Translations under genes and position numbers: made by a program
Part shown: positions 12,236-52,983 of the stretch, piece by piece
Layout: every line of letters begins with the position of its first letter
Numbering within the stretch: the first letter of the stretch is position 1
The notes under the pieces: generated by a model
The model's database searches: none
What the model saw: only the letters and a program-made list of their open reading frames with translations
What the model was told of the DNA's origin: nothing
Source of the DNA: Candidatus Saccharimonadales bacterium
GTDB lineage: Bacteria; Patescibacteriota; Saccharimonadia; UBA4664; SCTI01
DNA: 64,000 bases
Assembly: GCA_035479795.1 (NCBI GenBank)
Contig: DATIII010000002.1
Span: 7 to 64,006 of the forward strand
Direction of reading: 5' to 3'

Positions 12236-12248
12236 TCCTGGAGCCGTC

Positions 12249-15556: not shown

Positions 15557-15563
15557 CCCACCT

Positions 15564-15596
15564 GGATCCCGGATCCCGGATCCTGTATCCTGATTC
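15564..15596 (+). repeat. Heptad tandem repeat GGATCCC GGATCCC GGATCC TGTATCC TGATTC immediately upstream of the 15598 start
   Basis: Read directly from the sequence. It leaves no room for a Shine-Dalgarno site before ATG 15598. Confidence 0.7.
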
Positions 15597-15597
15597 T

Positions 15598-23074: not shown

Positions 23075-24090
23075 GAGAAGTGCGTCGGTGGTGGCAAAGT
23101 TTGGACCCAGCCATTCGGCTGACAGGATCATACCTGCTCATCATTATGCTGATCAGCTTCTTTTTCAGTGTGGTGCTGTACTACATGGCGGCCGGGCAAC
23201 TTTCCGAGGGCCTGCGCCATCAGTATTTGCGCTTCGGCTGCGGACCGGGCTGCGACCCGCAGGGTCCGGTGGGCTTAATTGTCCGAGAAGAACTAGCCAT
23301 CGAAAAGGGCAGACTAATAGCCCAGCTAGCCTATTTTAATATCCTCATCCTAATAATGGCCGCCGCCTCGAGCTTGTGGTTGGCCAGGCGGACCCTCAGA
23401 CCGATCGAAGCCGCCCTAGAAGCTCAGAGCCGCTTTTCTTCGGACGCCTCTCACGAACTCCGCACACCTTTATCGGCCATGCAGGCCGAAATCGAAGTCG
23501 CCCTGCGCAATAAGAAGCTTTCGAAAGATGAGGCCATCAATGTGTTAAAAAGCAATCTGGAGGAAGTTATCAAACTGCGCGGTCTTTCTGACTCGCTACT
23601 ACGCCTGGCCCGCGAAAACGGCCTGGATTATACCGCTGTCGATTTGAAAATAGCTACAGCCGAGGCTGTCAGCCGGTTGCAAGTTTTAGCGGACAAAAAG
23701 CACATTAAAATCGTGGACCAAACAGATTCAGCAATTGTCTCCGGTGATTATATTAGCTTAGTCGATCTAATATCTATCCTGATCGACAATGCCGTCAAAT
23801 ATAGTCCTGAGAATAGTCAGATTACGATTCTTTCCGACACATCCAGCCGTTTCGCTAGTCTGACTGTCAAAGATAACGGCCCGGGCATTGGCAATACGCA
23901 CCTAACACGTATATTTGAACGATTTTACCGGGCTGACGTCTCGCGCACGGGTAGTGGCGGATACGGATTAGGGCTCTCTATAGCCAAAAAGCTGGCTGAT
24001 CTACATCAAGGTAAAATTGAGGTTAAGAGCCAGGCAGGCAAAGGCTCAGAATTTACCTTAAAAATACCTGTTCTAAAGCAGGGGGCTTAA
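23071..24090 (+). CDS. Sensor histidine kinase (HisKA + HATPase_c), 2 transmembrane segments
   Basis: H-box SHELRTPLSAM and G-boxes DNGPGI / GYGLGLSI. ATG overlaps the response-regulator stop (ATGA). Confidence 0.85.
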   Translation: MREVRRWWQSLDPAIRLTGSYLLIIMLISFFFSVVLYYMAAGQLSEGLRHQYLRFGCGPGCDPQGPVGLIVREELAIEKGRLIAQLAYFNILILIMAAASSLWLARRTLRPIEAALEAQSRFSSDASHELRTPLSAMQAEIEVALRNKKLSKDEAINVLKSNLEEVIKLRGLSDSLLRLARENGLDYTAVDLKIATAEAVSRLQVLADKKHIKIVDQTDSAIVSGDYISLVDLISILIDNAVKYSPENSQITILSDTSSRFASLTVKDNGPGIGNTHLTRIFERFYRADVSRTGSGGYGLGLSIAKKLADLHQGKIEVKSQAGKGSEFTLKIPVLKQGA

Positions 24091-32883: not shown

Positions 32884-32912
32884 ATAATAGCATAGTGGTT
32901 ACGTTTTGTCAA
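32884..32912 (-). promoter_or_regulatory. Consensus sigma70-type promoter cassette (TTGACA-17-TGcTATTAT) for 32269-32766
   Basis: Minus-strand -35 TTGACA (plus 32907-32912), 17-bp spacer, -10 TATTAT (plus 32884-32889) with TG at -15/-14. Confidence 0.6.
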
Positions 32913-33591: not shown

Positions 33592-33620
33592 ATAATAGCA
33601 TTATTCTTATGTTTTGTCAA
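33592..33620 (-). promoter_or_regulatory. Consensus promoter cassette (TTGACA-17-TGcTATTAT) for 32980-33528
   Basis: Minus-strand -35 (plus 33615-33620), 17-bp spacer, -10 (plus 33592-33597). Near-identical to the cassette at 32884-32912. Confidence 0.6.
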
Positions 33621-34022: not shown

Positions 34023-34874
34023 GTGCAACCCTCTAAAATTACTTATGCTAATTCCCAATATCCAGATGCGCTTCGTGAGATAGCGGCGGCCCCGAAGCAG
34101 CTTTACGTACTGGGTGACTTGAAGGCCGGGCCGTTGGTCGCGGTTGTCGGGTCACGCCGCCCTACAGATTATGGCAAACAGGTGACCCATCAGTTGGCAA
34201 CCGACTTGGCCCGAGCCGGGGTGGGGATTGTATCTGGGCTGGCCCTGGGTATTGATACGATAGCTCATCAAGCGGCTGTGGAGGCCGGGGGTTATACCAT
34301 TGCCGTCCAAGGTAATGGGCTTGATAAGGTCTACCCTCATAGTAATCGCGGATTAGGCATTAAGATTCTTGAATCAGGCGGAGCCATTATTAGCGAATAC
34401 GACCCGGGTATGCCGGCTTTAAAACAGAACTTTCCAGCCCGCAACCGCATTATTTCGGGCTTAAGTTTGGCGGTGATTGTGACCGAAGCGGATGCCTCCA
34501 GCGGCTCGCTGATTACTGCCAATTTTGCGGTTCAGCAGAACCGGCAGGTTTTAGCAGTACCGGGCAACATTACCAGCCAGCGCTCGGCCGGACCAAATAA
34601 CCTGCTTAAACTCGGCGCCATACCAGTCACCAGCGCCAGCGATGTGCTGGCCGCGCTCGACCTGGAATCCCGGGCCTTAAAGGCTCGGCCAGCCATTGCA
34701 CAGAGTGCTGAGGAGGCCAAGTTACTCGAACTTATGGATACTGGCACCACCCAAAGCCAGCAACTGATTGAAGGCGCTGATATGACGGCAAGTCAGTTTG
34801 CCTACGTGATTAGCTTGATGGAGATCACCGGCAAGGTGCGCAACCTAGGCGCCGGTATTTGGGTGCGCCGCTAG
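34023..34874 (+). CDS. dprA: DNA processing protein A (DprA/Smf)
   Basis: Rossmann-like core VAVVGSRRPTDYG...GVGIVSGLALGIDTIAHQAAV. GTG start. Confidence 0.85.
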   Translation: MQPSKITYANSQYPDALREIAAAPKQLYVLGDLKAGPLVAVVGSRRPTDYGKQVTHQLATDLARAGVGIVSGLALGIDTIAHQAAVEAGGYTIAVQGNGLDKVYPHSNRGLGIKILESGGAIISEYDPGMPALKQNFPARNRIISGLSLAVIVTEADASSGSLITANFAVQQNRQVLAVPGNITSQRSAGPNNLLKLGAIPVTSASDVLAALDLESRALKARPAIAQSAEEAKLLELMDTGTTQSQQLIEGADMTASQFAYVISLMEITGKVRNLGAGIWVRR

Positions 34875-35882
34875 CTTCAGCCGCTCTTGGCTTATCGTAA
34901 TATCCAGACCAATATATAGCAGCAATTGGAAAACAAACACGGGAATATCGCGAAACTCGTGTAGATAAAAGCCCACGAATTGGACTACAAATAGGTTTAC
35001 CAGTACAGCCGATTTGAACATTTCCAAGGCGCTTAGCCGCATCACCGGGTTGCTCAGATTACGAGCTGCCCGAATCATGAGTAGCAAAGAGATCAACAAG
35101 GCTGTTAATTGGGCGTAACTAGCATAGGCCAAGTCAGCAGATAGCGGCTTTTCCCAACCCAAGCCGGGTGGCACTAAAGACCACGCGCTTAAGATCGCAA
35201 ACAGTGTGGCTTGGGCAATAAGAAAGAAGGAGATAGATCTGTTTACCGCTGGCTTGGCGGCTAGCTTGGTGTAGAAACGCAGCAGGCCGGCCTTGAACCG
35301 ACGCCAAGACAATTGGCGCCGGATTGGCAGAGGCTTTATATCGTCAATAATGCTCAGTAGCGCCTTGGCGGTGGGGTTATTGCCGGCCTTGAATAATAAG
35401 AACTCGGTGCGTTTTTTCTCGGCCTCATCCAAATCATTCAATACCACTTCTTCCATCTGATGCAAGGCATTTAGGAGGTACTCAGTAGACGAAAGCTCCT
35501 GGTTGCGTGCAATGCGGCGGAATAGGAAGAACAGGGCTAAAAATAAGGCATATAAAATAGCAGCTGTTGGCCGAAAAAAGTAATTGTTGTCGCGGGTTAT
35601 AAACTTGCCCAGCTCATCTATAAAGATGCCGAAACCAATCCCACCAAGGATAGCCGAAAGCCGCCGGGTGCGTTCGGTTAGGTAAATCAGCGTGAGCACA
35701 ATTGCGGCTGCCATAAGCAGTCCGCCATAAAGCATATGGGCAATATGCAGACGCCCACCTATCTGGGGATAGCCGGTTACGAAGAGGTAGAACCGCATTA
35801 ATAGTAGGCTAGCAATGGCCGTAACCATGAAGGTTTCTAGCAGTTCGCCAGCGTGAATATTGCGTTGTAACATGCGACTCAT
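34845..35882 (-). CDS. Hypothetical polytopic membrane protein (345 aa)
   Basis: About 8 transmembrane helices. Overlaps the dprA 3' end by 30 nt. No family recognised. Confidence 0.45.
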   Translation of the reverse strand: MSRMLQRNIHAGELLETFMVTAIASLLLMRFYLFVTGYPQIGGRLHIAHMLYGGLLMAAAIVLTLIYLTERTRRLSAILGGIGFGIFIDELGKFITRDNNYFFRPTAAILYALFLALFFLFRRIARNQELSSTEYLLNALHQMEEVVLNDLDEAEKKRTEFLLFKAGNNPTAKALLSIIDDIKPLPIRRQLSWRRFKAGLLRFYTKLAAKPAVNRSISFFLIAQATLFAILSAWSLVPPGLGWEKPLSADLAYASYAQLTALLISLLLMIRAARNLSNPVMRLSALEMFKSAVLVNLFVVQFVGFYLHEFRDIPVFVFQLLLYIGLDITISQERLKLAAHPNTGA

Positions 35883-36580: not shown

Positions 36581-36609
36581 AGAATAGCATAAGAAGCTTA
36601 TTTTGTCAA
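36581..36609 (-). promoter_or_regulatory. Consensus promoter cassette (TTGACA-17-TGcTATTCT) for 36021-36533
   Basis: Minus-strand -35 (plus 36604-36609), 17-bp spacer, -10 (plus 36581-36586). Confidence 0.55.
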
Positions 36610-36632
36610 GATTCTAACAGATGGGATATAAT
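36603..36632 (+). promoter_or_regulatory. Divergent plus-strand promoter TTGTCA-18-TATAAT for the dihydrouridine synthase gene, sharing its -35 region with the minus-strand cassette
   Basis: TTGTCA at 36603-36608, TATAAT at 36627-36632 overlapping the ORF-track ATG. The first ATG after it is 36643. Confidence 0.45.
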
Positions 36633-38331: not shown

Positions 38332-38360
38332 ATAATAAACCATAAGTGGTATTTTGTCAA
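38332..38360 (-). promoter_or_regulatory. Consensus promoter cassette (TTGACA-17-TATTAT) for the Rpf-like gene
   Basis: Minus-strand -35 (plus 38355-38360), 17-bp spacer, -10 (plus 38332-38337). Confidence 0.55.
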
Positions 38361-39828: not shown

Positions 39829-40617
39829 ATGAGAGCTCTCTGGACTGGGTCCCTTAGCTTTGGCTTAATCAACATCCCCGTACGGCTATATTCGGGTAGT
39901 GAGTCACGGGGTGGTATTGAGCTGACCATGCTTCATAAAAAGGACCTTTCACCAATCCGTTATGCCCGAATTTGCCGCGCCGACGGCAAGGAAATTCCGT
40001 TCGACCAGATTGTAAAGGGCTACGAGTACCAGGAAGGTGACTACGTGGTGCTAACCGATGACGATCTGAAAAAGGCCAATGCCCGGCGGACCAAGAGCAT
40101 TGATATCGAAGAGTTTGTGCACGAGGATGAGATTGATGTGCGCTACTACGAAAAGCCATACTATCTAGAACCTGATAAAAATGCGGCCAAACCTTACGCT
40201 CTGCTACGAGAGGCTTTGAATAAAAGCGGACGCGTGGCGATTGCCAAGTTTGTGCTGCGCAATAAGGAGCATTTAGCCGCCGTTAAACCGGTTGGCAAGG
40301 TATTGGTTCTGGAGCAAATGCGCTTTCCATCAGATCTGCGAGCGCCATCCAAGCTAGATATCCCGGAAGCCTCAGCCGCCACCAAAAAGGAGATTGATAT
40401 GGCCCTGGCGCTGATTGATCAACTGAGTGCGCCATTTATACCTGAAGATTTTCACGACACCTATACCGAGGAACTCGAAGCACTGATTGAAGCCAAAGCT
40501 AAAGGCAAAAAGCCCAAAGCCGCTGGACCAGCACCCAAGGCCACACCGAGTAAAGACCTAATGAGCATGCTCAAGGCCAGCCTAGAGAAGGAGCGCGACA
40601 AAGCCGCGTCCAAATAA
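39829..40617 (+). CDS. ku: Non-homologous end-joining protein Ku
   Basis: N-terminus MRALWTGSLSFGLINIPVRLYSG and the Ku core. Lys-rich C-terminus. Confidence 0.9.
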   Translation: MRALWTGSLSFGLINIPVRLYSGSESRGGIELTMLHKKDLSPIRYARICRADGKEIPFDQIVKGYEYQEGDYVVLTDDDLKKANARRTKSIDIEEFVHEDEIDVRYYEKPYYLEPDKNAAKPYALLREALNKSGRVAIAKFVLRNKEHLAAVKPVGKVLVLEQMRFPSDLRAPSKLDIPEASAATKKEIDMALALIDQLSAPFIPEDFHDTYTEELEALIEAKAKGKKPKAAGPAPKATPSKDLMSMLKASLEKERDKAASK

Positions 40618-43062
40618 ATGGCCCTGGCCGAATATAAAAAGAAGCGGACATTCAAGAGTAGTCCTGAACCGGCTGGCAAATTACATAAGCCGGAAAAGCA
40701 CTTGCGATTTGTGGTCCAAAAACACCACGCCAGCCAGCTCCATTATGATTTTCGACTAGAGCTCGATGGCGTCTTAAAGAGCTGGGCGGTGCCCAAGGGC
40801 CCCTCTTTAAATCCAGATGACAAGCGACTAGCTATGATGGTCGAAGATCACCCCTATGAGTACCGGGATTTCGAAGGGGTTATTCCGAAAGGCAATTATG
40901 GCGCCGGCAAGGTGATCGTATGGGACGAGGGTACTTATGAAGATTACGAGCAATCAAAAGATCTAAAAACTCAGATTAAAAATCTTCGCGCGGGACTAAA
41001 GAAAGGCGACTTTAAGTTTGTGCTGCATGGCCAAAAGCTGAATGGGGCCTACGTGTTGGCTAAGATGCAGGGTCGGGGTGAAAATAATTGGCTACTGATC
41101 AAGAAAAAGGACGATTTTGCCACCGCTGAGGATGTGACCAAACAAGGCGAATCTGTAAAATCCGGCCTGGACGTAGAAGCGGTCGGTGATGTTCCGGGCA
41201 AAAAATGGCTCAAGACGCCGAAGTTAAATCTGAAAGACGCTCCTAAGGCCACCCAACCAGGCAAGCTAGAACCGATGCTGGCGACATTATCAAAGGAAGC
41301 ATTTGACGGTCCGGACTGGCTGTATGAGATCAAGTGGGACGGCTACCGAATATTGGCGCATCTGGGAGACGGTGAGGTGAAACTACTTAGCCGCAATGGC
41401 AAAGACTACACCGAAGTGTTCGCGCCGATTGCAACGGAGCTATCAAGCTTGAAATTAAATGCCATCTTGGACGGCGAGATCGTGGTCTTGGACAAGGATG
41501 GCAAAAGTGACTTTGGGGCCCTCCAGGATTACCAAAAAACGGGTGCGGGCCATCTGGTATACGAGGTTTTTGACGCTCCTTTTGCAGATGGTCACGACCT
41601 TCGCGAACTCTCATTGACTAAGCGAAAGGAGATCGTCGCCGAAGCCATAGAGGATCTGGAAAACGTCCGCTATAGCGACCACATTACCGGAGGCGGCAAG
41701 GCCTTCTTCGCCCAGGCCGAAAAGCTGGGCTTGGAAGGCATAATGGCTAAACAAAATGACAGCCAATACTTAAATGGCAAACGGGGACAAAGTTGGCTGA
41801 AGATTAAGACCCACCAACGGCAGGAGGTGGTGGTTGGCGGCTGGACAGAGCCGCGCGGCGGTCGCAAAGGTATGGGCGCCCTTATTGTTGGCGTTTATGA
41901 GGAGAAGAGTCTACGCTACGTCGGTAATGTTGGTGGCGGATTTACTGAAAAGAGCATTGATGACATTTTGGTAAAATTGAAGCTCTTGGAGCGCAGGACA
42001 TCACCCTTTAGCGGGCCAGTCAAAAATGATACTGCCATCCATTGGGTGAAGCCCGATCTGTTAGCCGAGGTAAAGTTTGCCGAATGGACAGGGGACGGCC
42101 ATCTGCGGCAGCCGATATTCTTGGGACTGCGTGAAGATAAGGAGGCCCAGAAGGTGCAAAAGGAAGAAGCCATCGAACCAGGTGGGAAGTTTACACCGAC
42201 TCATCGCGATAAGGTATTTTGGCCCAAGGAAAAATACACCAAGGGTGACGTGATTGATTATTACGATGCCGTATCTGCCACCATCCTGCCGCACCTGGTT
42301 TATCGGCCGCAGTCAATGAATCGTCATCCGAACGGCATTAAGGGGGCTAGCTTCTTTCAGAAGGATGTCGAAAAACACCCTGATTGGGTCAAAACCAAAC
42401 CGATTTACTCAGAGTCAAACGATGGGGATATTAACTGGCTGATCTGTAACGACCGCGACACACTGTTATACATGGCCAATTTGGGCTGTATTGAGCTCAA
42501 CCCCTGGCACTCGCGCACCGCTAGCTTGGATAAGCCAGATTACTGTTTGATCGACCTTGATGCCAAGACCACCAAATTTGAAGTCGTTGTCGAAGTGGCC
42601 AAAGCGGCTAAGAAGCTACTAGATGAGATTAGCGCCGATTGCTTTGTAAAAACTTCTGGAAAAACTGGCATGCACATATTGATACCGCTAGGTGCTAAAT
42701 ATTCCTATGAACAATCCCGGCAATTTGCACAATTAATTGTTGGCAAATTGAATGAAAGATTGCCGAAGATAACCAGCGTGGAGCGCAATCCAGATAAACG
42801 TCGCGGTAAGATCTATCTGGATTACCTACAAAACCGCAAAGGCCAGACGATGGCAGCCGCCTACTGCCTGCGACCCGTCGAAGGCGCCCCCGTTAGCGCC
42901 CCTCTTAAATGGAGCGAAGTTAAGAAGGGCCTTGATCCCCGAAAATTCAACATAAAAACTATGCCAGCTCGTATCAAGAAAGTCGGTGATCTTCATAATG
43001 GCCTTACTGGTCACAGAGGCATTGATATGATGAAATGCCTCAAAAATCTCGAAAAGTCTTAA
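40618..43062 (+). CDS. ligD: Multidomain ATP-dependent DNA ligase LigD (3'-phosphoesterase, ligase and polymerase/primase domains)
   Basis: PE domain HYDFRLELDG...WAVPKGPS. Ligase KxDG as EIKWDGYR. C-terminal LigD polymerase domain. 814 aa. Immediately follows ku. Confidence 0.9.
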   Translation: MALAEYKKKRTFKSSPEPAGKLHKPEKHLRFVVQKHHASQLHYDFRLELDGVLKSWAVPKGPSLNPDDKRLAMMVEDHPYEYRDFEGVIPKGNYGAGKVIVWDEGTYEDYEQSKDLKTQIKNLRAGLKKGDFKFVLHGQKLNGAYVLAKMQGRGENNWLLIKKKDDFATAEDVTKQGESVKSGLDVEAVGDVPGKKWLKTPKLNLKDAPKATQPGKLEPMLATLSKEAFDGPDWLYEIKWDGYRILAHLGDGEVKLLSRNGKDYTEVFAPIATELSSLKLNAILDGEIVVLDKDGKSDFGALQDYQKTGAGHLVYEVFDAPFADGHDLRELSLTKRKEIVAEAIEDLENVRYSDHITGGGKAFFAQAEKLGLEGIMAKQNDSQYLNGKRGQSWLKIKTHQRQEVVVGGWTEPRGGRKGMGALIVGVYEEKSLRYVGNVGGGFTEKSIDDILVKLKLLERRTSPFSGPVKNDTAIHWVKPDLLAEVKFAEWTGDGHLRQPIFLGLREDKEAQKVQKEEAIEPGGKFTPTHRDKVFWPKEKYTKGDVIDYYDAVSATILPHLVYRPQSMNRHPNGIKGASFFQKDVEKHPDWVKTKPIYSESNDGDINWLICNDRDTLLYMANLGCIELNPWHSRTASLDKPDYCLIDLDAKTTKFEVVVEVAKAAKKLLDEISADCFVKTSGKTGMHILIPLGAKYSYEQSRQFAQLIVGKLNERLPKITSVERNPDKRRGKIYLDYLQNRKGQTMAAAYCLRPVEGAPVSAPLKWSEVKKGLDPRKFNIKTMPARIKKVGDLHNGLTGHRGIDMMKCLKNLEKS

Positions 43063-43125: not shown

Positions 43126-45423
43126 ATGGCCAAGAATCTAGTAATAGTTGAGTCACCAGCCAAGGCAGCAACCGTTCAAAAGTTCCTAAATAAGGATACA
43201 TATGAGGTAGCGGCCAGTGTTGGTCATGTCCGTGATTTGCCCAAAAAGGGCATGTCCATCGACATCGATCACGGCTTTGCCCCAACGTACGAAATTAACG
43301 CCGATAAGAAAAAGGTAGTATCGGAGCTCAAGAAGAAGGCCAAAGCAGCTGATCATGTCTGGCTGGCCAGCGATCCCGATCGCGAAGGAGAGGCTATAGC
43401 CTGGCATCTTAGCCAGGCGCTGGCGCTCAAGCCTGATCAAACCAAACGCGTGGTGTTTCGCGAGTTCACTCAATCAGCTGTGAAGTCGGCTATGGACTCG
43501 CCTCGAGCCGTCGATGAGCATCTGGTAGACGCCCAACAAGCCCGGCGAGTACTGGACCGTTTGGTCGGTTATGAGTTATCGCCGATTCTCTGGAAGAAGA
43601 TTCAGACCGGCCTAAGTGCCGGACGCGTGCAATCGGTGGCAGTACGATTGATTGTAGAGCGCGAGCGCGAGATTGAAAATTTTGAAGCCAAATCGTCATT
43701 TAAGGTTATAGGCCTATTTGACGCCGATGGTGCCAGGCTTAAGGCTGAACTGACCAAAAAATTGGCCACCGAAGATGAAGCTCGCAAAGTATTAGAAGCA
43801 CTTGCTAATGACAGTTTTAAAGTAACGGCACTGGATCAAAAGCCGGCCACGCGCAACCCGGCCCCTCCGTTTACCACTTCGACCTTACAGCAGGAGGCCA
43901 GCCGCAAGCTATCATTTAGCGTTCGTCAGACAATGAGCGTAGCCCAAAAACTTTACGAGCAGGGTTTTATTACTTATATGCGTACTGATTCAGTCAATCT
44001 TTCTGCAACGGCTATTAACGCCGCACTGAAGGTTATTGAAAAAGAGTACGGCAAGGAATATGCCAAACAGCGCACCTACACCACCAAAACGGCCGGCGCC
44101 CAGGAGGCCCATGAAGCCATCCGGCCAACCGACTTTAGCCGGCAAACGATTAGTGGCGATCGCAACCAGGAGAGGTTGTACGAGCTAATTTGGAAGCGAG
44201 CGATTGCCACACAGATGGCGGAAGCAAAATTGGAAAAGACGATTGTCACCGTCAGCGGCACACCCAGCGGTAGTGAATTTAAGGCGCAGGCTGAAACCAT
44301 CCAGTTTGATGGATTTCTCAAAGTTTATATGGAGGGCCGCGACGAGGAGGACGAGACCGAAGAAAACTTGCTACCAGCTCTCAAGCCTAGCCAAGACCTG
44401 CCCCTCCTAGAGGCCTCCGCCAAGCAGACCTACGACCGCCCAAAGCCCCGTTACTCGGAAGCTATGCTGGTGCGCAAACTGGAAGAAATGGGCATTGGTC
44501 GGCCGTCTACCTATGCACCCACGATCTCGACCATTCAAGATAGAGGCTATGTTGAAAAAGCCGACATTGAGGGCAAGGAACGCTCCAGCATCGAGCTGAA
44601 ACTGACTGACGGCAAAATCGATCGCCAAGAAGTAACCGAAACTTACGGCGCCGATCGAGCCAAACTGCTACCAACGGCCGTTGCCATGTTGGTTACCGAC
44701 TTTCTTGTTAAGTATTTCCCTAACATTGTCGACTTTGACTTCACGGCGAAGGCCGAGGGGGAGTTCGATGAAATCGCTGATGGTAAGAAGGCTTGGAATG
44801 CTATGATTGCCGAATTTTACGGCCCATTTCATGAAACCGTCGTGGCCGCCGAAGGTGTCAGCCGGCAAGAAGCCTCACAGGCCAGGGAACTGGGTACCGA
44901 CCCCAAAACCGGCAAGCCCGTAATAGCACGTTTGGGTCGATTCGGCCCAATGGTACAACTGGGGCGCGCTGAGGATGAAGAAAAACCAGTTTTTGCAGCT
45001 CTGCCAGCTGGCAAGCAGCTCCATACCGTTACTATGGAGGAGGCCATGGAGTTGCTGAGCCTGCCGCGGCTGGTCGGCCAGACTGAAGACGGCCAGGATA
45101 TCCAAGCCAACTTCGGCCGCTTTGGCCCTTATATTAAGGTCGGCACCACCTTTGTCTCAATTAAACCGGATGACCCCTTTAATATCACTCTCGAACGAGC
45201 TCGAGAACTGTGGACGGAAAAGCAATCAGCCGATGCTGCCAAAAACATCAATGAATTTCCTGGTGGAGTGAAGGTGCTTAATGGGCGGTTTGGGCCCTAT
45301 GTTACTGACGGCAAGAAGAATGCTAAAATTCCTAAAGGAACTGACCCTGCCAGCATTTCTGAGCAAGAAGCCAAGGCTTTACTGACGGCCGCAAAGCCAG
45401 CCAGACCCCGGCGGCGACGTTAA
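43126..45423 (+). CDS. topA: DNA topoisomerase I
   Basis: Toprim N-terminus LVIVESPAKA. Active-site region. C-terminal repeats with RFGPY motifs. Lys/Arg tail. Confidence 0.9.
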   Translation: MAKNLVIVESPAKAATVQKFLNKDTYEVAASVGHVRDLPKKGMSIDIDHGFAPTYEINADKKKVVSELKKKAKAADHVWLASDPDREGEAIAWHLSQALALKPDQTKRVVFREFTQSAVKSAMDSPRAVDEHLVDAQQARRVLDRLVGYELSPILWKKIQTGLSAGRVQSVAVRLIVEREREIENFEAKSSFKVIGLFDADGARLKAELTKKLATEDEARKVLEALANDSFKVTALDQKPATRNPAPPFTTSTLQQEASRKLSFSVRQTMSVAQKLYEQGFITYMRTDSVNLSATAINAALKVIEKEYGKEYAKQRTYTTKTAGAQEAHEAIRPTDFSRQTISGDRNQERLYELIWKRAIATQMAEAKLEKTIVTVSGTPSGSEFKAQAETIQFDGFLKVYMEGRDEEDETEENLLPALKPSQDLPLLEASAKQTYDRPKPRYSEAMLVRKLEEMGIGRPSTYAPTISTIQDRGYVEKADIEGKERSSIELKLTDGKIDRQEVTETYGADRAKLLPTAVAMLVTDFLVKYFPNIVDFDFTAKAEGEFDEIADGKKAWNAMIAEFYGPFHETVVAAEGVSRQEASQARELGTDPKTGKPVIARLGRFGPMVQLGRAEDEEKPVFAALPAGKQLHTVTMEEAMELLSLPRLVGQTEDGQDIQANFGRFGPYIKVGTTFVSIKPDDPFNITLERARELWTEKQSADAAKNINEFPGGVKVLNGRFGPYVTDGKKNAKIPKGTDPASISEQEAKALLTAAKPARPRRRR

Positions 45424-45556: not shown

Positions 45557-47890
45557 ATGGCAAAGCGACGCAAAAAAAAGCGGTCATTCTATAAAACGCG
45601 AAAGCCAGCGGTCGTTTTGGCAAGCCCTGAAATTATGCTACACATCCCGGCTGTTGTCCCCACGGGATGGGCCCTTATTAAATATGATGCCCCGGCCGTA
45701 ATACACGACATCGCCGAGCAGATCCGGCGAATACAACGAGCGCTTTGGAGTGTGCCCGCCAAGGCCGTTTATTACCTCGGTGCCATAACGGTCGGATTTG
45801 GCACCTTAGGGTTTGGAGCCGTAACCGCCTATGATACCCTCCAGCACTACGGACCAACTCTTAATAATCCAGCGGTAATAATGAATACCAAAAACACCGG
45901 CACGACCATTCTCGATCGCAATGGTGAGGTTTTATATCAGGGCTATGGAGCCGTCTTGCGTCACAATATACCGTACGAGGAAATGCCGACCAGTCTGAAG
46001 CAAGCCACCCTGGCGGCCGAAGATCCTGATTTTTACAAGCACCAGGGGTTCTCCTGGAAGGGAACGGCCCGAGCAGTCTACCAGGATGCTATTCATACCG
46101 GGAAGATCCAGGGCGGTTCGACCATTACCCAGCAGCTCGTCAAAAATACTCTGTTGTCATCCGAGAAGTCGTTTACGCGCAAGTACAAAGAAATCATTTT
46201 GTCGATACAGCTAGAGCACAATTACAGCAAAGACCAGATAATGCAGATGTATCTAAATACCATTTATTTCGGCCAAGGTGCCTATGGGGTAGAGTCGGCG
46301 GCTGAAACCTACTTCCATAAGTCACCCAAAAATTTAACTCTAGAAGAGAGCGCCCTCCTAGCGGGCCTACCGCAAAGTCCCAGTGTTTATGATCCGAACA
46401 TAAACCCTGATGGTGCCTTGGAAAGACGGAATTATGTGCTGCAGCGGATGCAAGAGCTTGGCTATATTTCTCCTCAGACAGCCAAAATAGCGGTAACCAG
46501 TGCCGTCCAAGCCGGGATTCGTGACTACACCATCAAAGCCCCTCATTTTGTTTTTTATGTACTGGACCAGCTGCGCAGCCAGTACGGATCGGAGATGGTC
46601 GAAAAGGGCGGTATTGTGGTCCACACTTCGCTGGACTATGCCAAGCAGCAGAAGGCCGAGGAGATAGTTAAAACCCAGGTCACGAAGCTAGCCGGGCATC
46701 ATGCCACCAACGGTGGGCTCGTATCGATTGATACCCATAATGGTGACATCCTGGCAATGGTCGGCAGTGCCAACTACGACAACCCCAACTTTGGGGCCGT
46801 CAATGTGACTTTGGCCCAATTGCAGCCAGGATCAAGCTTCAAACCCATCGCCTACGTAACGGCCTTTGCAAAGGGTTGGAATGGTGCAACTAAGGTGGAT
46901 GACAAACCAATCAAGCTGCCCCAGGGTGACGGTACGATTTATGCGCCCCAAAACTACGACCAGAAGTTCCGCGGGCCAGTAACTCTGCGCCGAGCACTGG
47001 CTAACTCACTCAATATCCCGGCCGTCGAAGTTCTTCAATATGCTGGGATTCACGACACGATTAACACTGCCCACGCGCTCGGTATTCAGGCTCCCAGCCT
47101 GACCGACGAAAGCCGGTATGGGATGAGCTTGGTGCTGGGGGGTGGGGAGGTCCGGCCGATCGATATGGCAGGAGTTTATGCCACCTTTGCTAACAAAGGG
47201 GTTTCGGTTCAACCGCGAGCCATTACCCGAGTTGAAGATCGATTTGGTAACAACATTACTCAGCCAAGGCATCAAAAGGCCAATCAAGCCGTTGATGGTC
47301 GGCTGGCCTACATGATTACTAATATTTTAAGCGACAATGGCGCCAGAACTGAAGAATTTGGGGCTAATTCACCCCTGAAGCTGAGCCGTCCAGCAGCCGC
47401 CAAGACGGGTACCACCAATGACTTTCGGGACAACTGGACTGTGGGTTACACGCCAGATATAGCCACAGCCGTCTGGGTAGGTAATAATGACCACACGCCT
47501 ATGCAGAATGTGGACGGCATTACTGGCGCCGCTCCAATTTGGCATGATTATATGGAAATGGCTCTCGCCGGTACTCCAGTAAATAACTTTGCTATACCAT
47601 CCGGCTTAGTCACGGCCAAGGTCTGTGCCACCGACGGCGGACTAGTCGACGACAACGATACTAAAGGCGTAACAGAAGTCTTCCTGGCTGAGGCTAAACC
47701 AACCCAGCACTGTGGCTGGTCCAGCCCGAAGCCCAAGCCAGTTTTGGTTCAGGCCGAAACACCGGCCGCTGCGCCGGCCCAAGTGGCGTCTGCGCCCGAG
47801 GAGGGGGGGAGAGGTGGAGGTGATCCGAGCCAGGATCAAAATCCTCCTACCCCGAATCCAGGGAATGTTCCGACGCCCCGAAAACCCTAA
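45557..47890 (+). CDS. Bifunctional class A penicillin-binding protein (PBP1A: GT51 transglycosylase + transpeptidase)
   Basis: GT motif EDPDFYKHQGF. TP motifs SSFKP, SLN and KTGT. N-terminal transmembrane segment. Pro-rich C-terminus. Confidence 0.85.
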   Translation: MAKRRKKKRSFYKTRKPAVVLASPEIMLHIPAVVPTGWALIKYDAPAVIHDIAEQIRRIQRALWSVPAKAVYYLGAITVGFGTLGFGAVTAYDTLQHYGPTLNNPAVIMNTKNTGTTILDRNGEVLYQGYGAVLRHNIPYEEMPTSLKQATLAAEDPDFYKHQGFSWKGTARAVYQDAIHTGKIQGGSTITQQLVKNTLLSSEKSFTRKYKEIILSIQLEHNYSKDQIMQMYLNTIYFGQGAYGVESAAETYFHKSPKNLTLEESALLAGLPQSPSVYDPNINPDGALERRNYVLQRMQELGYISPQTAKIAVTSAVQAGIRDYTIKAPHFVFYVLDQLRSQYGSEMVEKGGIVVHTSLDYAKQQKAEEIVKTQVTKLAGHHATNGGLVSIDTHNGDILAMVGSANYDNPNFGAVNVTLAQLQPGSSFKPIAYVTAFAKGWNGATKVDDKPIKLPQGDGTIYAPQNYDQKFRGPVTLRRALANSLNIPAVEVLQYAGIHDTINTAHALGIQAPSLTDESRYGMSLVLGGGEVRPIDMAGVYATFANKGVSVQPRAITRVEDRFGNNITQPRHQKANQAVDGRLAYMITNILSDNGARTEEFGANSPLKLSRPAAAKTGTTNDFRDNWTVGYTPDIATAVWVGNNDHTPMQNVDGITGAAPIWHDYMEMALAGTPVNNFAIPSGLVTAKVCATDGGLVDDNDTKGVTEVFLAEAKPTQHCGWSSPKPKPVLVQAETPAAAPAQVASAPEEGGRGGGDPSQDQNPPTPNPGNVPTPRKP

Positions 47891-47962
47891 ACAATCATTT
47901 ACTTTACCTCAATCCTGGATTCCGTGTTCTTAAATCCCCAAATCCTGCTCCTAAATCCTTAA

Positions 47963-47991
47963 TTGACACCTTTTGGGACATATTTTATAAT
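47963..47991 (+). promoter_or_regulatory. Perfect consensus sigma70 promoter TTGACA-17-TATAAT giving an essentially leaderless GTG start at 48001
   Basis: TTGACA at 47963-47968, TATAAT at 47986-47991. Preceded by the palindrome AATCCtGGATT (47911-47921) and three AAATCC repeats (47932-47958). Confidence 0.6.
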
Positions 47992-48000
47992 GTATCTAAC

Positions 48001-49032
48001 GTGGAAACCGATACACTCACAGCCGGGAAGGCAATTGATTATCGAAAAACCGCCGAGGCTATCCTCAGCGTCCTCAAGCAGGAACGCGATCGCGAGATAG
48101 TAGCCCGGCGTTTTGGGCTGGGAATTGACCGCCGCCACACTCTCGAGAAGATTGGTCAAGCCTTCGGTATTACCAGAGAACGAGTCCGTCAGATTGAAAA
48201 ATCGGCGACCGCCAAACTGATGGCTAGCCAGCACCAGCATATTAAGGACGTGGATGCCATTCTTAGTCAGCACCTGGCTCGAGTCGGGCACATTGCCCCC
48301 TTACGCGAGGTCACCGAGGCCATTGGAGCCAAAACTCCAGCCGAACGAGCCTATGTGACCTTCCTAGCCACTCTGGCGCCGTCGATCGAGGTAATTGATG
48401 AAAATGATTACTTCCATGCAGCCATCGCCAGTCTTCCCCAGTTTGACCGTATGAAGCTGTCCATCGCCACTAGTAAAATTAAGGCCCAGCTCGACAAACA
48501 TGGTCAGCCGGAAAGCCTGGCCCGGCTACATAAACTAACAACTCCTGATCTGCCCCGAGAATCAGTCGAAAACATTGCCAAGATTTCGAAGACGCTGGCT
48601 GAGCTTGATGGGAAGTGGGGACTGGTTCATTGGCCTCAAGTTAATCCTCGGTCAATTCGCGACAAGACCTTCTTGATTTTAAACAAGCATAATCAGCCCA
48701 TGCACTTCACCGACATTGCCGGCCGCATTACTGATCTGGGACAGCGCCGGCGCGAAGTAACTGTTCAGGCGGTTCACAACGAACTAATCAAAGACCCTCG
48801 GTTTGTACTGGTAGGGCGGGGGATTTATGCCCTCAGCGACTGGGGCTACACTCCCGGAACTGTGGCCGACATTATCACCGAAGTCCTGAAGCAGCAGTCA
48901 CCATTACATAAAGATGAGATCGTAAAACGAGTGCTGCAGAAGCGCCAGGTGAAAACCACCACCATCGTCTTAAACTTACAAGAAAAAGACCAGTTTGTGC
49001 GGGTGGCGAAGGCTACCTACGGTTTGAGGTAA
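48001..49032 (+). CDS. DNA-binding protein with an N-terminal sigma-70 region-4-like HTH and a C-terminal HARE-HTH / RpoE-delta-like winged helix
   Basis: EIVARRFGL...TLEKIGQAFGITRERVRQIEKSA matches sigma70 region 4. C-terminus FVLVGRGIYALSDWGY matches the HARE-HTH signature. Confidence 0.6.
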   Translation: METDTLTAGKAIDYRKTAEAILSVLKQERDREIVARRFGLGIDRRHTLEKIGQAFGITRERVRQIEKSATAKLMASQHQHIKDVDAILSQHLARVGHIAPLREVTEAIGAKTPAERAYVTFLATLAPSIEVIDENDYFHAAIASLPQFDRMKLSIATSKIKAQLDKHGQPESLARLHKLTTPDLPRESVENIAKISKTLAELDGKWGLVHWPQVNPRSIRDKTFLILNKHNQPMHFTDIAGRITDLGQRRREVTVQAVHNELIKDPRFVLVGRGIYALSDWGYTPGTVADIITEVLKQQSPLHKDEIVKRVLQKRQVKTTTIVLNLQEKDQFVRVAKATYGLR

Positions 49033-49033
49033 C

Positions 49034-51736
49034 ATGGGCGTACTCGGAGGGATTGTTTCAGCCATTCTGCAAATCCTCGGCATCATGCTGTTTAAACTTT
49101 ACGGCTGGGTGGTTATTGTCGCTATCTTGGGATACCTAATCTGGCAGAATCGCCGCCGCGAGCAGTGGGTCACCCAGACCGATCATATCCTGCTGCTAGT
49201 AGAAGTCCCTAAAGATAATGAAAAAAAGGAACTGTCGGCCGAGCAAATGTTTGCCAGCCTTCACGGCATCTTACGGCCGAAGTCTGAGCTGCGCCGCGAG
49301 GGTTCGCTCCAGGAGCACATCAGCTTGGAACTGGCGGCCCGTGACAATCAAATCCAGTTTTATGTTTGGACACCCAAGCACCTGAAGGATTTTGTGGAAG
49401 GCCAGATTTACGCTCAGTATCCATCGGTGCGTATCCGAGAGGGGGTGGAAGACTACACCACGATCGAAAAGGGGGCGCGGGAAGTTTACACGACCGAGCT
49501 ATCTCTCACTAAGGACGACGTATTGCCGATCAAAACCTTCCAGACCTTTGAAGTCGACCCGTTGGCCGGTATTACCGCCGTCTTGGCCAAGCTCGAGGAG
49601 ACAGGCGAGGAAATGTGGATTCAAATCCTGGCGCGACCAATTGACGATTCCTGGCAAGATGATGGGCATAAGTACATTGAAGACATTAAAAATGGCCGGA
49701 CGCCCCATTTTCGCCGAGCCTTGCTTGATCAACTGATTGCCATACCTCTACATGTCGTAGCTAATTTTGTAACAGCCTTGGCATCGCCGCCGGAGTCGGC
49801 GGACAAGAAGGGCGGGGAAGTTAAACTCTCAACCGGACAGCAAGCCGTCATAAAGGCGGTGGAGAGCAAGGTAGCCAAGCTGGGTTATCAGGTTAAAATT
49901 CGGATTACTTATCTTGGGAGTGACGCCGATCGAGCTAAACAACGGGTTCAAGCCATTGTGGGCGGTTTTAAGCAGTTTAATACCACCAGTCTCAATGGCT
50001 TTACAACTAGGCACAGTCTGGTAGGGGACGCCGGGCTAGCAGAATATCAGGCCCGGCTATTCATGGGCGAAGGGTCGACCTTAAATATTGAAGAGCTGGC
50101 CAGTGTTTACCACCTACCGCACAAGAGCGTCGAAACTCCCAATATGGTATGGACCACCGTTAAAACCTCCGAGCCGCCGTCTAGTCTACCAGCCGAAGGG
50201 GCGGTCGCGCCCGAAGACGTCAGCTTGTTTGGTCAAACCAACTTCCGCGGGCATCAAATTAAGTTCGGCATTAAGCGTCGCGACCGTGACCGTCATATGT
50301 ACATCATCGGCCAAACCGGTACGGGTAAGTCGAAGCTATTAAACCTCCTGACCCTGTCTGACATCTATCACGACATCGGATTGGCGATTGTCGACCCGCA
50401 CGGCGACTTCGCCACAGATATGCTGCAGTATATACCCGAGCATCGGCTAAAAGATGTGATCTACTTTAACCCGACCGACCGCGACTTTCCGATCGCCTTT
50501 AACCCCCTTGAGGTCTACGATCCGGCCTTTAAAAACGATATTAGTTCGGAAATGATTGGCGTCTTAAAGCGGATGTTCGACTCCTGGGGGCCCAGATTGG
50601 AGTACATTCTGCGATACACCATCTTGGCGCTGCTCGATTATCCGGATTCGACCATGCTAGGGATTACCCGCATGCTGACCGAAAAGGAATTCCGTAAAAA
50701 GGTGATCCGCGAGATCAAAGATCCGGTGGTGAAGAATTTCTGGGTTAACGAATTTGCTAGTTGGAATGATAAATTTGCCAACGAAGCAGTGGCCCCGGTG
50801 CTGAACAAGGTCGGTGCTTTTACCGCTAACCCGCTGATCCGTAATATCATTGGCCAGCCCAAGAGCAAGTTGGATCTACGGGGCATAATGGACGAAGGCA
50901 AGATCCTAATTGTTAACCTCAGCCGCGGCCAGATTGGCGAGGATAATGCCAGTATCCTGGGCGCTCTAATGGTCACTAAGATTCAGCTAGCCGCCATGAG
51001 CCGAGCTAACATCCCGCTCGAGCAGCGCCGGCCATTCTATCTATATGTCGACGAGTTCCAAAACTTTGCTACCGATTCGTTCGCGACCATTCTGTCCGAG
51101 GCCCGCAAATACCAACTAAATCTGACCGTCGCTAACCAGTATATTGCCCAGATGCCCGAACAGGTGAGAGACGCCGTGTTTGGCAACGTTGGGACCATGG
51201 TAAGCTTCCGTGTGGGCGCGGGCGACGGGCAAGTGATTGGTAAATACTTTACTCCAGCCTTCGAGCCTGAAGATCTCATAAAGTTAAATAATCAGCATAT
51301 TGTACTCGACATGACTATTGACGGCGAAAAGAACATCCCGTTCTCGGCTACCACTCTGCGCATGCCGGAGCCAGAGCGTAACTACACACCCGAAATGATC
51401 GCTTACACACGCAGCCACTACGCCAGTGCCAGGGGCGATGTAGAGCGCGAAATCTCGGAGTGGACACTTGGTCAAAGCGCTGCCGAAAAGGCCACTGATG
51501 AGCAAGCCACTCCCGAAGAACAAAAACCGAACACGTTTTTAGGCAATCTCAAAAATCCCAATCCGCCAGCAGCCAGCCACTCAAGCCACGGAAATTCTAA
51601 TCGAAACCGTAATCGAAATCGGAAATCAACAGGTGGCCAAACCAGAGAAAGCCAGCACAGAGGCCAACAGGAGTCTCGATCTGGTGAACGGGAAAGGGCG
51701 TCTGTTGGCGCTCAAAACAGCCAAAAACAGGATTAA
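49034..51736 (+). CDS. Membrane-anchored P-loop ATPase of the FtsK/HerA-TraD/VirD4 (T4SS coupling-protein-like, AAA_10/DUF87) class with an Arg/Asn/Gln-rich tail
   Basis: N-terminal transmembrane helices. Walker A IIGQTGTGKSK followed by IVDPHGDF. Walker B-like LYVDEFQNF. 900 aa. Confidence 0.55.
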   Translation: MGVLGGIVSAILQILGIMLFKLYGWVVIVAILGYLIWQNRRREQWVTQTDHILLLVEVPKDNEKKELSAEQMFASLHGILRPKSELRREGSLQEHISLELAARDNQIQFYVWTPKHLKDFVEGQIYAQYPSVRIREGVEDYTTIEKGAREVYTTELSLTKDDVLPIKTFQTFEVDPLAGITAVLAKLEETGEEMWIQILARPIDDSWQDDGHKYIEDIKNGRTPHFRRALLDQLIAIPLHVVANFVTALASPPESADKKGGEVKLSTGQQAVIKAVESKVAKLGYQVKIRITYLGSDADRAKQRVQAIVGGFKQFNTTSLNGFTTRHSLVGDAGLAEYQARLFMGEGSTLNIEELASVYHLPHKSVETPNMVWTTVKTSEPPSSLPAEGAVAPEDVSLFGQTNFRGHQIKFGIKRRDRDRHMYIIGQTGTGKSKLLNLLTLSDIYHDIGLAIVDPHGDFATDMLQYIPEHRLKDVIYFNPTDRDFPIAFNPLEVYDPAFKNDISSEMIGVLKRMFDSWGPRLEYILRYTILALLDYPDSTMLGITRMLTEKEFRKKVIREIKDPVVKNFWVNEFASWNDKFANEAVAPVLNKVGAFTANPLIRNIIGQPKSKLDLRGIMDEGKILIVNLSRGQIGEDNASILGALMVTKIQLAAMSRANIPLEQRRPFYLYVDEFQNFATDSFATILSEARKYQLNLTVANQYIAQMPEQVRDAVFGNVGTMVSFRVGAGDGQVIGKYFTPAFEPEDLIKLNNQHIVLDMTIDGEKNIPFSATTLRMPEPERNYTPEMIAYTRSHYASARGDVEREISEWTLGQSAAEKATDEQATPEEQKPNTFLGNLKNPNPPAASHSSHGNSNRNRNRNRKSTGGQTRESQHRGQQESRSGERERASVGAQNSQKQD

Positions 51737-52176
51737 ATACATAGGCAGTAGTAGCGGATAGTCGGCGCAGGGAAGAGCAGGAAATAATTCTCGCCACCGA
51801 CATGATATTAGACCGGGCGAGCGTGAAGTAATGAAGAATGAAGCAATGTGTGATAGCGTCGCACAATGTATATTTTGCGACATACATCTATCTGTGAAAC
51901 CGGTGTATGGTTGAACCTTGAAAGATAGCAGCTAACAGGTATAAATGCCTTTATGGAGCTATTATTCTCTCTGCTAATGGGATGTAATGCCATTAACGGC
52001 CCTATTGTAAAAACTACATTCACTTGGGTGTTCGGTTAATATTCAGCGGGTCTCTACTCCACCCTACCCTGTTACTGCTAATGTTTATTAACAATGATTT
52101 ATTTACCGCCAACAACGTACTAACTACGCCGGTGAACGAAAACCGAACATGGGGGAGAGAAGAGAGTTATCCTCTT

Positions 52177-52983
52177 TTATTTATAGTAGGCTTTGTGCTC
52201 GACCCGAAGATCAATATACTCACTAGGCGACTTCCTGCTTCGTGCTAACTCGCTCATCACGGCTGCTAAGTCCCCCAGTTCCTCCCCCGCCGGGCGAGTG
52301 GTATCCACCTTTAGTAAAAATCCTTTATCAGTTTTTACATAAAGCTCACTAGTGCTTTGGCTGACCGACGATTCCCCTGCCTTCAAACCAGTCTTAGTCG
52401 TCAATCCATTTAAAAACTCGTTGCAGAATGACACGAAGGCAGAAGATACGGCGGATTTACCCGGTTTTACCGGTACGTTACTAGCGTCGATGACCACCGG
52501 TAACCTGGAATAAATGCCCTTAGTCGGTGCGATGACCGTGCCATCAACATCTAAAAGATAGGTAGTGTCGCCAGTTCTCCAATTTAGTCCAGGCTGTCGC
52601 TCAACCACCTTTATCTTTAGTCTTCCTGGTAGTGATCTCTCAATAGCGACATCTTTTAGAGCTGGCTCGGCCTGTTCGAGATAGTTAGCCAAGGTCCCCG
52701 TGTCCGCCAGAACAGTATTACGACCAAAGATTTGTTTATGAAGCCCGTCATTCGCAAGAGCAGTCACCCGTTCTTTGGGAAGGGCCGTATTTCCCGAAAC
52801 ACTGATCGACTTTAGGGCTGTCCACCGAGATATAACGACCAACAAGACAAGGATGGCTACACCGACACCTGCTAGCCGGATCCATGATGATGGAATACTA
52901 ATATCACGACGGGGCTTTGATCGACGCGGTGGCCGTCGATCAAAGTTGGGTCGACCAACTCGGTTGACTTGGCGTGGTGGCAT
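52177..52983 (-). CDS. ftsQ: Cell division protein FtsQ/DivIB-like (POTRA domain)
   Basis: Single transmembrane segment followed by a POTRA-like region ISVSGNTALPKERV. Located after murG in the dcw order. ATG overlaps the murG stop (TAATG). Confidence 0.6.
   Translation of the reverse strand: MPPRQVNRVGRPNFDRRPPRRSKPRRDISIPSSWIRLAGVGVAILVLLVVISRWTALKSISVSGNTALPKERVTALANDGLHKQIFGRNTVLADTGTLANYLEQAEPALKDVAIERSLPGRLKIKVVERQPGLNWRTGDTTYLLDVDGTVIAPTKGIYSRLPVVIDASNVPVKPGKSAVSSAFVSFCNEFLNGLTTKTGLKAGESSVSQSTSELYVKTDKGFLLKVDTTRPAGEELGDLAAVMSELARSRKSPSEYIDLRVEHKAYYK

Follow-up and report, generated by a model that had tools for sequence, protein, structure and literature searches.

We analyzed a 64-kb stretch of a Candidatus Saccharimonadales chromosome (the window) and, within it, an operon of two genes at positions 47963-51736. 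The first gene encodes a protein with several helix-turn-helix (HTH) domains, among them a sigma region 4 and a HARE-HTH domain (the HTH protein), and the second encodes a membrane-anchored P-loop ATPase of the type IV coupling protein (T4CP) class that also carries a DUF8128 domain. The explanation that we favor, with moderate confidence, is that this is a core operon whose three parts, the T4CP-class motor, DUF8128 and an essential sigma-4/HARE-HTH partner, form a module conserved across Patescibacteria, in which the HTH protein would act as an adaptor for the motor.

Conservation of the gene pair in Saccharimonadia

The sample consisted of 80 species-representative genome loci with an ATPase homolog at 51-70% identity, 74 of which were assessable. 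The HTH gene is located upstream of the ATPase gene on the same strand in 61 of the 74 Saccharimonadia loci and is directly adjacent to it in 55, and the gap between the two genes, 1 nt in the window, is usually 15-90 nt in the relatives. Among the 61 syntenic loci, TopA is found upstream in 51 and convergent dcw genes are found downstream in 44. The gene pair is thus conserved in relatives, a point on which a preliminary description of this DNA had made its interpretation depend, and it was found again in all four Parcubacteria loci described below. Homologs of both proteins number in the thousands, and those with a named source belong nearly all to Saccharimonadia or other Patescibacteria.

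No VirB4, VirB6 or relaxase gene was observed near the module in the Pfam- and ORF-annotated flanks of L001, L002, and L083-L089, or in eight further loci inspected by eye; the flanks of the remaining loci were screened for TopA, PBP1A, HTH, and dcw genes only.

In some Saccharimonadales (L076 and L078, at about 7000-16900), the gene order read from translations of open reading frames (ORFs) is TilS-FtsH-ATPase-MurJ-LepA, and the ATPase of these loci may represent a soluble or differently anchored subfamily. A metagenome-assembled genome of Candidatus Berkelbacteria (L082, positions 6850-12835) encodes two tandem T4CP-like ATPase paralogs of 834 and 971 aa, both with a transmembrane (TM)/DUF8128-like N-terminus by eye and with a 170-aa ORF lacking a Pfam match between them; the HTH gene was not found within 10 kb of this locus.

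Three-gene form of the module in Parcubacteria

All four Parcubacteria loci (L086-L089) contain three genes in the same order after SecD and SecF: (i) a Sigma70_r4/HARE-HTH gene (355-364 aa), (ii) a TM + DUF8128 gene (390-430 aa), and (iii) an ATPase gene with TrwB_AAD_bind/DUF87 (575-626 aa). The module directly follows secD-secF in three of these loci, and three other genes intervene in L086; in L087 and L088, SecA is found a short distance upstream as well. A convergent gene for EF-P lies downstream in three of the four loci, and the next genes are different in L086. The polar tail that characterizes Saccharimonadia is replaced in the Parcubacteria ATPases by a C-terminal treble-clef zinc finger (zf_Tbcl_2).

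Comparison of the window proteins with the three genes of L087 by BLASTP gave a match to each gene. The HTH protein (residues 21-342, nearly its full length) matches the HTH gene at 38% identity (E 1e-76), ATPase residues 12-388 match the DUF8128 gene at 30% identity (E 6e-53), and ATPase residues 394-825 match the ATPase gene at 54% identity (E 4e-170). Because its two halves match the second and the third gene of L087, the 900-aa protein of the window is a fusion product of genes that stand apart in other genomes; by this comparison, the DUF8128 and ATPase parts are fused in Saccharimonadia and encoded by adjacent separate genes in Parcubacteria. A search with the DUF8128 region (ATPase residues 40-400) against 1.84 billion representatives resulted in 2326 matches at E<=1e-3, many of which are proteins of ~420-550 aa that stop right at the linker motif EELA..YH.P...PP.LP; such proteins, consisting of TM + DUF8128 alone, occur commonly in Parcubacteria. 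The surroundings of the module are of a housekeeping kind in both cases, TopA and the dcw cluster in the window and SecDF in Parcubacteria. Since distant classes share the module but not its flanking genes, its gene order argues strongly for functional coupling of the three parts.

Published genetics of the presumed orthologs

Presumed orthologs of both window genes are found in Southlakia epibionticum, for which transposon sequencing (Tn-seq) data have been published (Wang et al. 2023, PMC10633639). They share with the window pair the domains, the adjacency, the TopA neighborhood, and similar lengths; in the published work they are listed in supplementary tables only and never discussed as a module. 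SEML1_0294 is a protein of 349 aa with Sigma70_r4 at residues 27-72 and HARE-HTH at residues 225-283, for which DPAM reports one sigma-like and three winged domains, and SEML1_0293 is a protein of 921 aa with TrwB_AAD_bind, TraG-D_C, and DUF87; the tables flag both as core, Patescibacteria-enriched families (PMC10633639). TopA is located two genes 5' of the pair (PMC10633639), and a GNAT gene and CRISPR-Cas9 follow it instead of the dcw cluster of the window.

The HTH gene SEML1_0294 was classified as essential (ES/ES/ES), its insertions dropping from 24 in the input to 1 at T0, and the ATPase gene SEML1_0293 as non-essential (NE/NE/NE), with normalized reads of 5817, 2940, and 1372 (PMC10633639); we read the falling counts as a mild fitness cost. 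Because the downstream ATPase gene is dispensable, the essentiality of the HTH gene does not result from polar effects, and the HTH protein must do more than regulate the ATPase. In a survey of 2,918 Patescibacteria genomes with 5,713 VirD4-type homologs, only 148 of which are near virB4, the S. epibionticum T4CP homolog was likewise noted as non-essential and exaptation was raised (Quinonero-Coronel et al. 2025, PMC12102498).

Architecture and class of the ATPase

The ATPase gene starts with the ATG at 49034, ends at 51736 on the plus strand, and encodes a protein of 900 aa with the following features:

49034-49147, plus strand: N-terminal membrane anchor, residues 1-38, followed by NRRRE (hydropathy)
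49181-50113, plus strand: DUF8128 (PF26449) alpha/beta domain, about residues 50-360 (Pfam match and model)
50219-51433, plus strand: P-loop nucleotide-binding domain of the T4CP class, residues 396-800
50309-50332, plus strand: Walker A, GQTGTGKS
50522-50851, plus strand: all-alpha insertion, residues 497-606 (model)
51035-51058, plus strand: Walker B, FYLYVDEF
51485-51733, plus strand: disordered polar, slightly basic C-terminal tail, residues 818-900 (predicted local distance difference test, pLDDT, <50)
51599-51627, plus strand: NRNRNRNRK, an imperfect AATCGA hexamer repeat (TRF)

The membrane anchor was called from hydropathy (Kyte-Doolittle values >1.6 in every 19-residue segment starting at residues 1-19, and a hydrophobic stretch at residues 1-37) and from the structure model, in which residues 2-48 form an N-terminal helix. 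DUF8128 was assigned by a precomputed Pfam match for exactly this protein, and in the model a disordered linker connects it to the P-loop domain. The insertion consists of seven helices in the model, is flanked by strands 475-478 and 624-628, and lies within the TrwB_AAD_bind match. The Walker A and B residues do not vary among 48 ATPase homologs. All 48 also have a C-terminal tail (75-264 aa, ~50% polar, median net charge +4), the sequence of which is not conserved.

The DUF87 and TrwB_AAD_bind matches of the ATPase exceed the Pfam cut-offs, whereas FtsK_SpoIIIE (17.8 bits) stays under its 24-bit cut-off; the hidden Markov model classification, on which the preliminary description had made the assignment depend, thus does not point to a housekeeping FtsK. 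TrwB is the top PDB sequence match. The structural match figures for the model are 16.5 for Cagbeta, 15.2 for DotL, 15.0 for VirB4, and 14.6 for DptH, with lower values for TrwB (13.7), HerA (12.5), and FtsK (8.4). According to the model, the ATPase is structurally nearest to T4CPs (Cagbeta, DotL, and TrwB) and not to FtsK.

Comparison with the T4CPs VirD4, TrwB, TraD, Cagbeta, and DotL, which are the best sequence and structural matches, revealed several shared features: the N-terminal anchor, the P-loop domain of the FtsK/HerA superfamily, the all-alpha insertion, the Walker A context RH(L/M)Y..G.TG.GKS, and the RK.GL motif. T4CPs also form pairs with small DNA-binding accessory proteins, such as TraM-TraD, TrwA-TrwB, and TcpK-TcpA, which the window pair recalls. 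The ATPase differs from T4CPs in that (i) a DUF8128 of ~310 residues, a separate gene in Parcubacteria, is placed between the anchor and the ATPase domain, (ii) it is encoded in the core chromosome, unlinked to VirB4, VirB6, or relaxase genes in the loci examined, (iii) it is dispensable in S. epibionticum, where the type IV secretion system (T4SS) is essential, (iv) it falls far short of the NCBIfam TraD/VirD4 equivalog cut-offs (SXT_TraD, 37.8 bits versus 366; conju_CD1115, 35.4 bits versus 250), and (v) its partner is a sigma-4/HARE protein and not a ribbon-helix-helix or TraM-type protein. Because it never stands beside VirB or relaxase genes in these loci, the ATPase is an 'orphan' T4CP-like motor and not a conjugation gene.

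Two other systems show a more limited likeness. The ATPase shares the central DUF87 domain with the HerA helicase; however, its N-terminus is formed by the TM segment and the alpha/beta domain DUF8128 instead of a HAS-barrel, and a NurA-type neighbor was not found. The DUF8128 model resembles EccE, a component of ESX/type VII secretion systems, in structure only; when PDB sequences were searched with a profile, this resemblance was not borne out. EccB, EccD, and Esx substrates are missing, and the T4CP-like ATPase contains a single P-loop domain, in contrast to the three of EccC.

The HTH protein combines sigma- and delta-like modules

The HTH protein contains the following features:

48001-49032, plus strand: gene of the 343-aa multi-HTH protein, GTG start
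48040-48225, plus strand: sigma region 4, residues 14-75
48169-48201, plus strand: recognition helix ITRERVRQIEK
within the HTH gene, plus strand: middle helical/winged region, about residues 96-200
48652-48843, plus strand: HARE-HTH, residues 218-281
48856-49029, plus strand: C-terminal winged helix, residues 286-343

Sigma70_r4 (residues 28-73, E 3e-12) and HARE-HTH (residues 218-281, E 2e-12) both match above the Pfam cut-offs. By sequence, the PDB entries that the protein matches best are primary sigma factors, in their region 4 (lowest E 3e-14); the likeness to RpoD/SigA amounts to 35-42% identity over ~60-85 residues, including the TRERxRQIE helix and the RFG motif, and the alignment to SigA of B. 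subtilis and S. aureus reads RFGL..R.TLE.IG..FGITRERVRQIE. Residues R29, R37, R59, E60, R61, R63, and Q64 are kept in 48 of 48 orthologs, and we take these residues, from the known structures of sigma-4 on -35 DNA, to correspond to the positions through which sigma-70 contacts the -35 hexamer.

No Pfam match to Sigma70_r2 or Sigma70_r3 was found in the HTH protein, and the sigma families of NCBIfam match it only in their C-terminal 60-70 profile positions, far below the cut-offs. In contrast to sigma factors, it thus has no regions 1-3, which provide -10 recognition and the main core-binding domain, and its sigma-4 is fused to three winged-helix domains. Compared with the delta subunit (RpoE) of Firmicutes, it scores 30.8 bits versus the family cut-off of 42, its HARE-HTH is internal rather than N-terminal, and it has no acidic C-terminal tail. 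Since sigma regions 2 and 3 and the acidic delta tail are lacking, the HTH protein cannot be classed as a sigma factor or as a delta subunit; its domain content identifies it as a chimera of two DNA-binding modules associated with RNA polymerase (RNAP) and further winged helices.

A strong promoter is the conserved element upstream of the operon

The following sites were observed upstream of the HTH gene, at the gene junction, and downstream of the ATPase gene:

47911-47921, no strand assigned: palindrome AATCCTGGATT, upstream of the -35 hexamer (sequence)
47932, 47940, and 47953 (block 47911-47958), no strand assigned: three AAATCC direct repeats, upstream of the -35 hexamer (sequence)
47963-47991, plus strand: consensus sigma-A-type promoter TTGACA-17-TATAAT, 12/12 match
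49026-49029, plus strand: GAGG, Shine-Dalgarno sequence of the ATPase gene within the 3' end of the HTH gene (sequence)
49030-49032, plus strand: TAA stop codon of the HTH gene (sequence)
49034, plus strand: ATG of the ATPase gene, after a 1-nt gap
51847-51885, plus strand: terminator-like hairpin GTCGCA-N12-TGCGAC, 3' of the ATPase gene, in an island conserved in L083

The promoter is composed of TTGACA (47963-47968), a 17-nt spacer, and TATAAT (47986-47991) and is the sole 12/12 match on both strands of the window; four others reach 11/12. A promoter with at least 11 of 12 matching positions precedes the orthologous HTH gene in 69% of loci, compared to 6% of 477 other upstream regions of the same loci, and a 12/12 promoter in 27%, compared to 1%. 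All four Parcubacteria loci have a promoter-like match (9-11 of 12) 5' of the HTH gene, with an exact TTGACA in three and TTGACT in L088, and some have TG directly before the -10 hexamer. When metagenome contigs were scanned for the exact pattern of the promoter and start junction, no match was obtained.

The repeats and the leader are not shared in this way. At least five AATCC/GGATT copies per 60 nt form a single cluster in the window, which exceeds chance, since only 1 of 200 first-order Markov simulations reached five copies. The repeats are missing in the relatives L084 and L085 (ATPase 78% and 72% identical), and the contig of the closest relative, L083 (ATPase 85% identical), stops just short of the repeat region. 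A conserved operator was therefore rejected despite the unusual clustering, and the repeats may represent a lineage-specific operator. The GTG at 48001 is the earliest possible start in frame, and the resulting N-terminus fits homologs of 337-354 aa. Because the -10 hexamer ends 9 nt before this codon, the mRNA of the HTH gene is predicted to be leaderless or nearly so, with a leader of 0-3 nt and a probable transcription start at A47998 or A47999. Most orthologs of the HTH gene have a leader of 40-65 nt, and the near-leaderless layout occurs only in the window, L083, and L003. As only the promoter recurs in relatives, the conserved feature is a very strong promoter and not the repeats or the missing leader.

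At the other end of the HTH gene, the layout of the junction suggests co-transcription and translational coupling of the two genes.

Most of what the preliminary description had stated about this region agrees with our results: the perfect promoter, the palindrome and the three repeats, the GTG-initiated protein with sigma-r4-like and HARE-HTH domains, the 1-nt gene gap, and the 900-aa membrane-anchored P-loop ATPase with the NRNRNRNRK tail, for which hydropathy, Pfam, and the tail sequence concur. Its leaderless, repeat-decorated promoter describes the layout of the window correctly, the leaderless part being our prediction too, but is lineage-specific and does not hold as a conserved design.

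Two side observations concern promoters and leaders. The 11/12 promoters of the window are located on the minus strand at 32884-32912, 33592-33620, and 38332-38360 and on the plus strand at 36603-36632, and the three minus-strand ones have TTGACA-17-TATTAT in common. In many Saccharimonadia loci (L016-L018, L021, L023, L026, L027, L032, L034, L038, L039, and L041), the motif GGTG(A/T)GGCAGAGAGGA is kept ~15-25 nt 5' of the HTH start codon; it is missing in the leaderless window and might serve in the leader as an extended ribosome-binding site or as a regulatory element.

Proposed mechanism and alternative explanations

In the adaptor-motor mechanism, the ATPase would be a hexameric ring that its anchor and DUF8128 keep on the cytoplasmic side of the membrane and that uses ATP for threading or remodeling of a nucleic-acid or nucleoprotein substrate. 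The multi-winged-helix HTH partner would recognize and deliver this substrate, by analogy with the winged-HTH and ribbon-helix-helix accessory proteins of conjugative T4CPs. The HTH protein might have a second, ATPase-independent essential role as an abundant RNAP- or promoter-associated factor. Binding to its own promoter, over the -35 hexamer, is also conceivable, because the TTGACA-reading helix TRERxRQ is retained in the sigma-4 module. Contact between the two proteins, binding of DNA by the ATPase, and binding of RNAP or TTGACA by the HTH protein are proposed elements of this mechanism. A bolder proposal, which we put forward as doubtful, is that the sigma-4/delta-like protein is an unrecognized essential RNAP-associated factor of Patescibacteria that physically couples promoter DNA or the transcribing polymerase to a membrane motor derived from T4CPs.

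Several observations weigh against the adaptor-motor explanation. The ATPase occurs without an HTH neighbor in 13 of the 74 Saccharimonadia loci, and its homologs in L076 and L078, judged from ORF translations, seemingly have no N-terminal anchor. The confidence of the ATPase model is moderate (pLDDT 74). Essentiality was determined in a single species, the ATPase of which is an estimated ~55-60% identical. Finally, the substrate could be a protein: Cagbeta and DotL, the top structural matches, are T4CPs for effector proteins, DUF8128 is EccE-like, and the Parcubacteria module adjoins secDF.

Alternatively, the ATPase could be the coupling protein of the Patescibacteria T4SS, acting in trans and encoded away from virB4, with the HTH protein as its substrate or DNA adaptor. 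This is a possibility of some weight, although we consider it unlikely. The T4CP-class fold, the membrane anchor, and the all-alpha insertion are as expected for such a protein, t4cp genes are often far from virB4, and the T4SS is universal in Saccharibacteria. In S. epibionticum, the T4SS cluster SEML1_0006-0019 includes no recognizable coupling protein (PMC10633639). However, T4SS genes are essential for epibiotic growth and the ATPase ortholog is not, the fraction of homologs near virB4 is very small in the survey cited above, and both DUF8128 and the conserved sigma-4/HARE partner are foreign to known T4CPs. The identity of the ATPase domain between classes, 54%, is in our judgment also unusually high for an accessory T4CP.

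The possible protein substrate leads to the proposal that the module is a type VII-like ATPase for protein export or membrane-protein handling and that its DNA-binding partner is a mere regulator or passenger, which appears improbable. Besides the effector-translocating T4CPs among the top matches and the position downstream of secD-secF in four of four Parcubacteria loci, with secA near in two, envelope genes neighbor the Saccharimonadia module (PBP1A, dcw genes, and, by eye, a putative MurJ-like gene in L076 and L078). The EccE similarity is nevertheless a structural one from a model of moderate confidence, without sequence support, and no further components of a type VII secretion system were seen. 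The strictly conserved partner is predicted to bind nucleic acid, and the basic polar tail in Saccharimonadia and zf_Tbcl_2 in Parcubacteria suggest nucleic-acid contact of the ATPase as well.

The preliminary description had suggested dedicated transcriptional control, i.e. that the HTH protein is a transcription factor switching on the ATPase gene for conjugation or DNA uptake. The adjacent, probably co-transcribed genes with a 1-nt gap, the DNA-binding domains of the HTH protein, and the repeats 5' of the promoter fit such a role, which we nonetheless regard as quite improbable. The HTH ortholog is essential and its supposed target dispensable; the HTH gene is itself the first gene of the operon, behind a promoter that reaches at least 11/12 in 69% of the loci; relatives do not share the repeats; and the sigma region 4 and delta-like domains are unlike those of a usual operon regulator and point to association with RNAP. 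Conjugation is unlikely in view of a core chromosomal locus with flat GC and with no relaxase, mating-pore, or other VirB genes near it in the loci examined.

A housekeeping FtsK/SpoIIIE translocase for chromosome segregation, suggested by the adjoining dcw cluster and TopA and by membership in the FtsK/HerA superfamily, was rejected as very improbable: apart from the sub-cut-off FtsK_SpoIIIE score, the 4TM, alpha, and gamma domains are missing, and the dcw adjacency is lost in Parcubacteria. S. epibionticum has a separate canonical and essential FtsK, SEML1_0096, with all FtsK domains (PMC10633639). The idea of a mobile element or an anti-phage defense system of the MADS, Dnd, or HerA type was dismissed as barely credible, since the PADLOC matches span the generic P-loop domain only and the locus is a core one, syntenic across species and classes, with flat GC and no partner defense genes.

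Novelty and implications

The database annotation of both genes is already known and the orphan T4CP has been remarked on. So far as the literature was searched, the three-part module, its fusion and split forms, the conserved consensus promoter, and the tie to the essentiality of the sigma-4/HARE protein are new: the search found no description of an HTH-DUF8128-ATPase module and no paper on 'DUF8128', and a search of Meheust et al. 2019 for the terms sigma, secretion, coupling, and conjugation found no description of the module.

Patescibacteria represent a large share of bacterial diversity, and the majority of the core genes specific to their lineages lack an assigned function. If the bolder proposal above is true, the sigma-4/delta-like protein and the motor would together constitute a new pathway for handling DNA or nucleoprotein at the membrane of ultra-small epibionts, with relaxase-independent DNA export or import and the membrane tethering and clearing of transcription complexes as candidate functions. 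As one part of a conserved three-part module, the orphan T4CP passes from a vague annotation to a concrete testable unit, and its HTH partner is essential in S. epibionticum, which is transformable and the only genetically tractable member of Patescibacteria. The result bears on the role of the thousands of T4CP homologs in Patescibacteria that are unlinked to a T4SS and on the organization of transcription in organisms with few regulators.

Genomic surroundings of the operon

The operon is preceded on the plus strand by genes for Ku, LigD, TopA (43126-45423), and a class A penicillin-binding protein (45557-47890). On its 3' side, a 440-nt spacer (51737-52176) separates it from the convergent dcw cluster on the minus strand, which consists of FtsQ (52177-52983), MurG, FtsW, MraY, FtsI, FtsL, RsmH, and MraZ. 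The GC content is flat (0.48-0.53) over 40-58 kb of the window. No T4SS-type Pfam domain, including VirB4, VirB6, and relaxase, was found among the scanned genes of the window, in agreement with the earlier remark that other T4SS components are not visible there. Judged by flat GC, synteny, and this absence, the locus is core chromosomal and non-mobile. The window contains no paralog of either the HTH gene or the ATPase gene, and an Rfam search of 47700-52300 at E<=1 gave zero matches.

The hairpin in the spacer is probably a terminator between the convergent operons. Compared with L083, the spacer has kept three islands, the hairpin (51853-51885), CCCtATTGTAAAAACTACA (about 52000-52018), and GAACGAAAACCGAACAtGGGG (about 52134-52155), and has diverged in the remainder. 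A 96-aa minus-strand ORF annotated by NCBI (51597-51887) overlaps the 3' end of the ATPase gene and is probably spurious.

Just upstream of TopA, at 39829-43062, Ku and a full-length LigD (814 aa, ligase and primase-polymerase) make up a complete pair for non-homologous end joining in a reduced Saccharimonadales genome. Two minus-strand ORFs elsewhere in the window, 24087-25559 (490 aa) and 34845-35882 (345 aa), have no significant Pfam domain; one of them is located between genes of a two-component system, and the other adjoins DprA (34023-34874).

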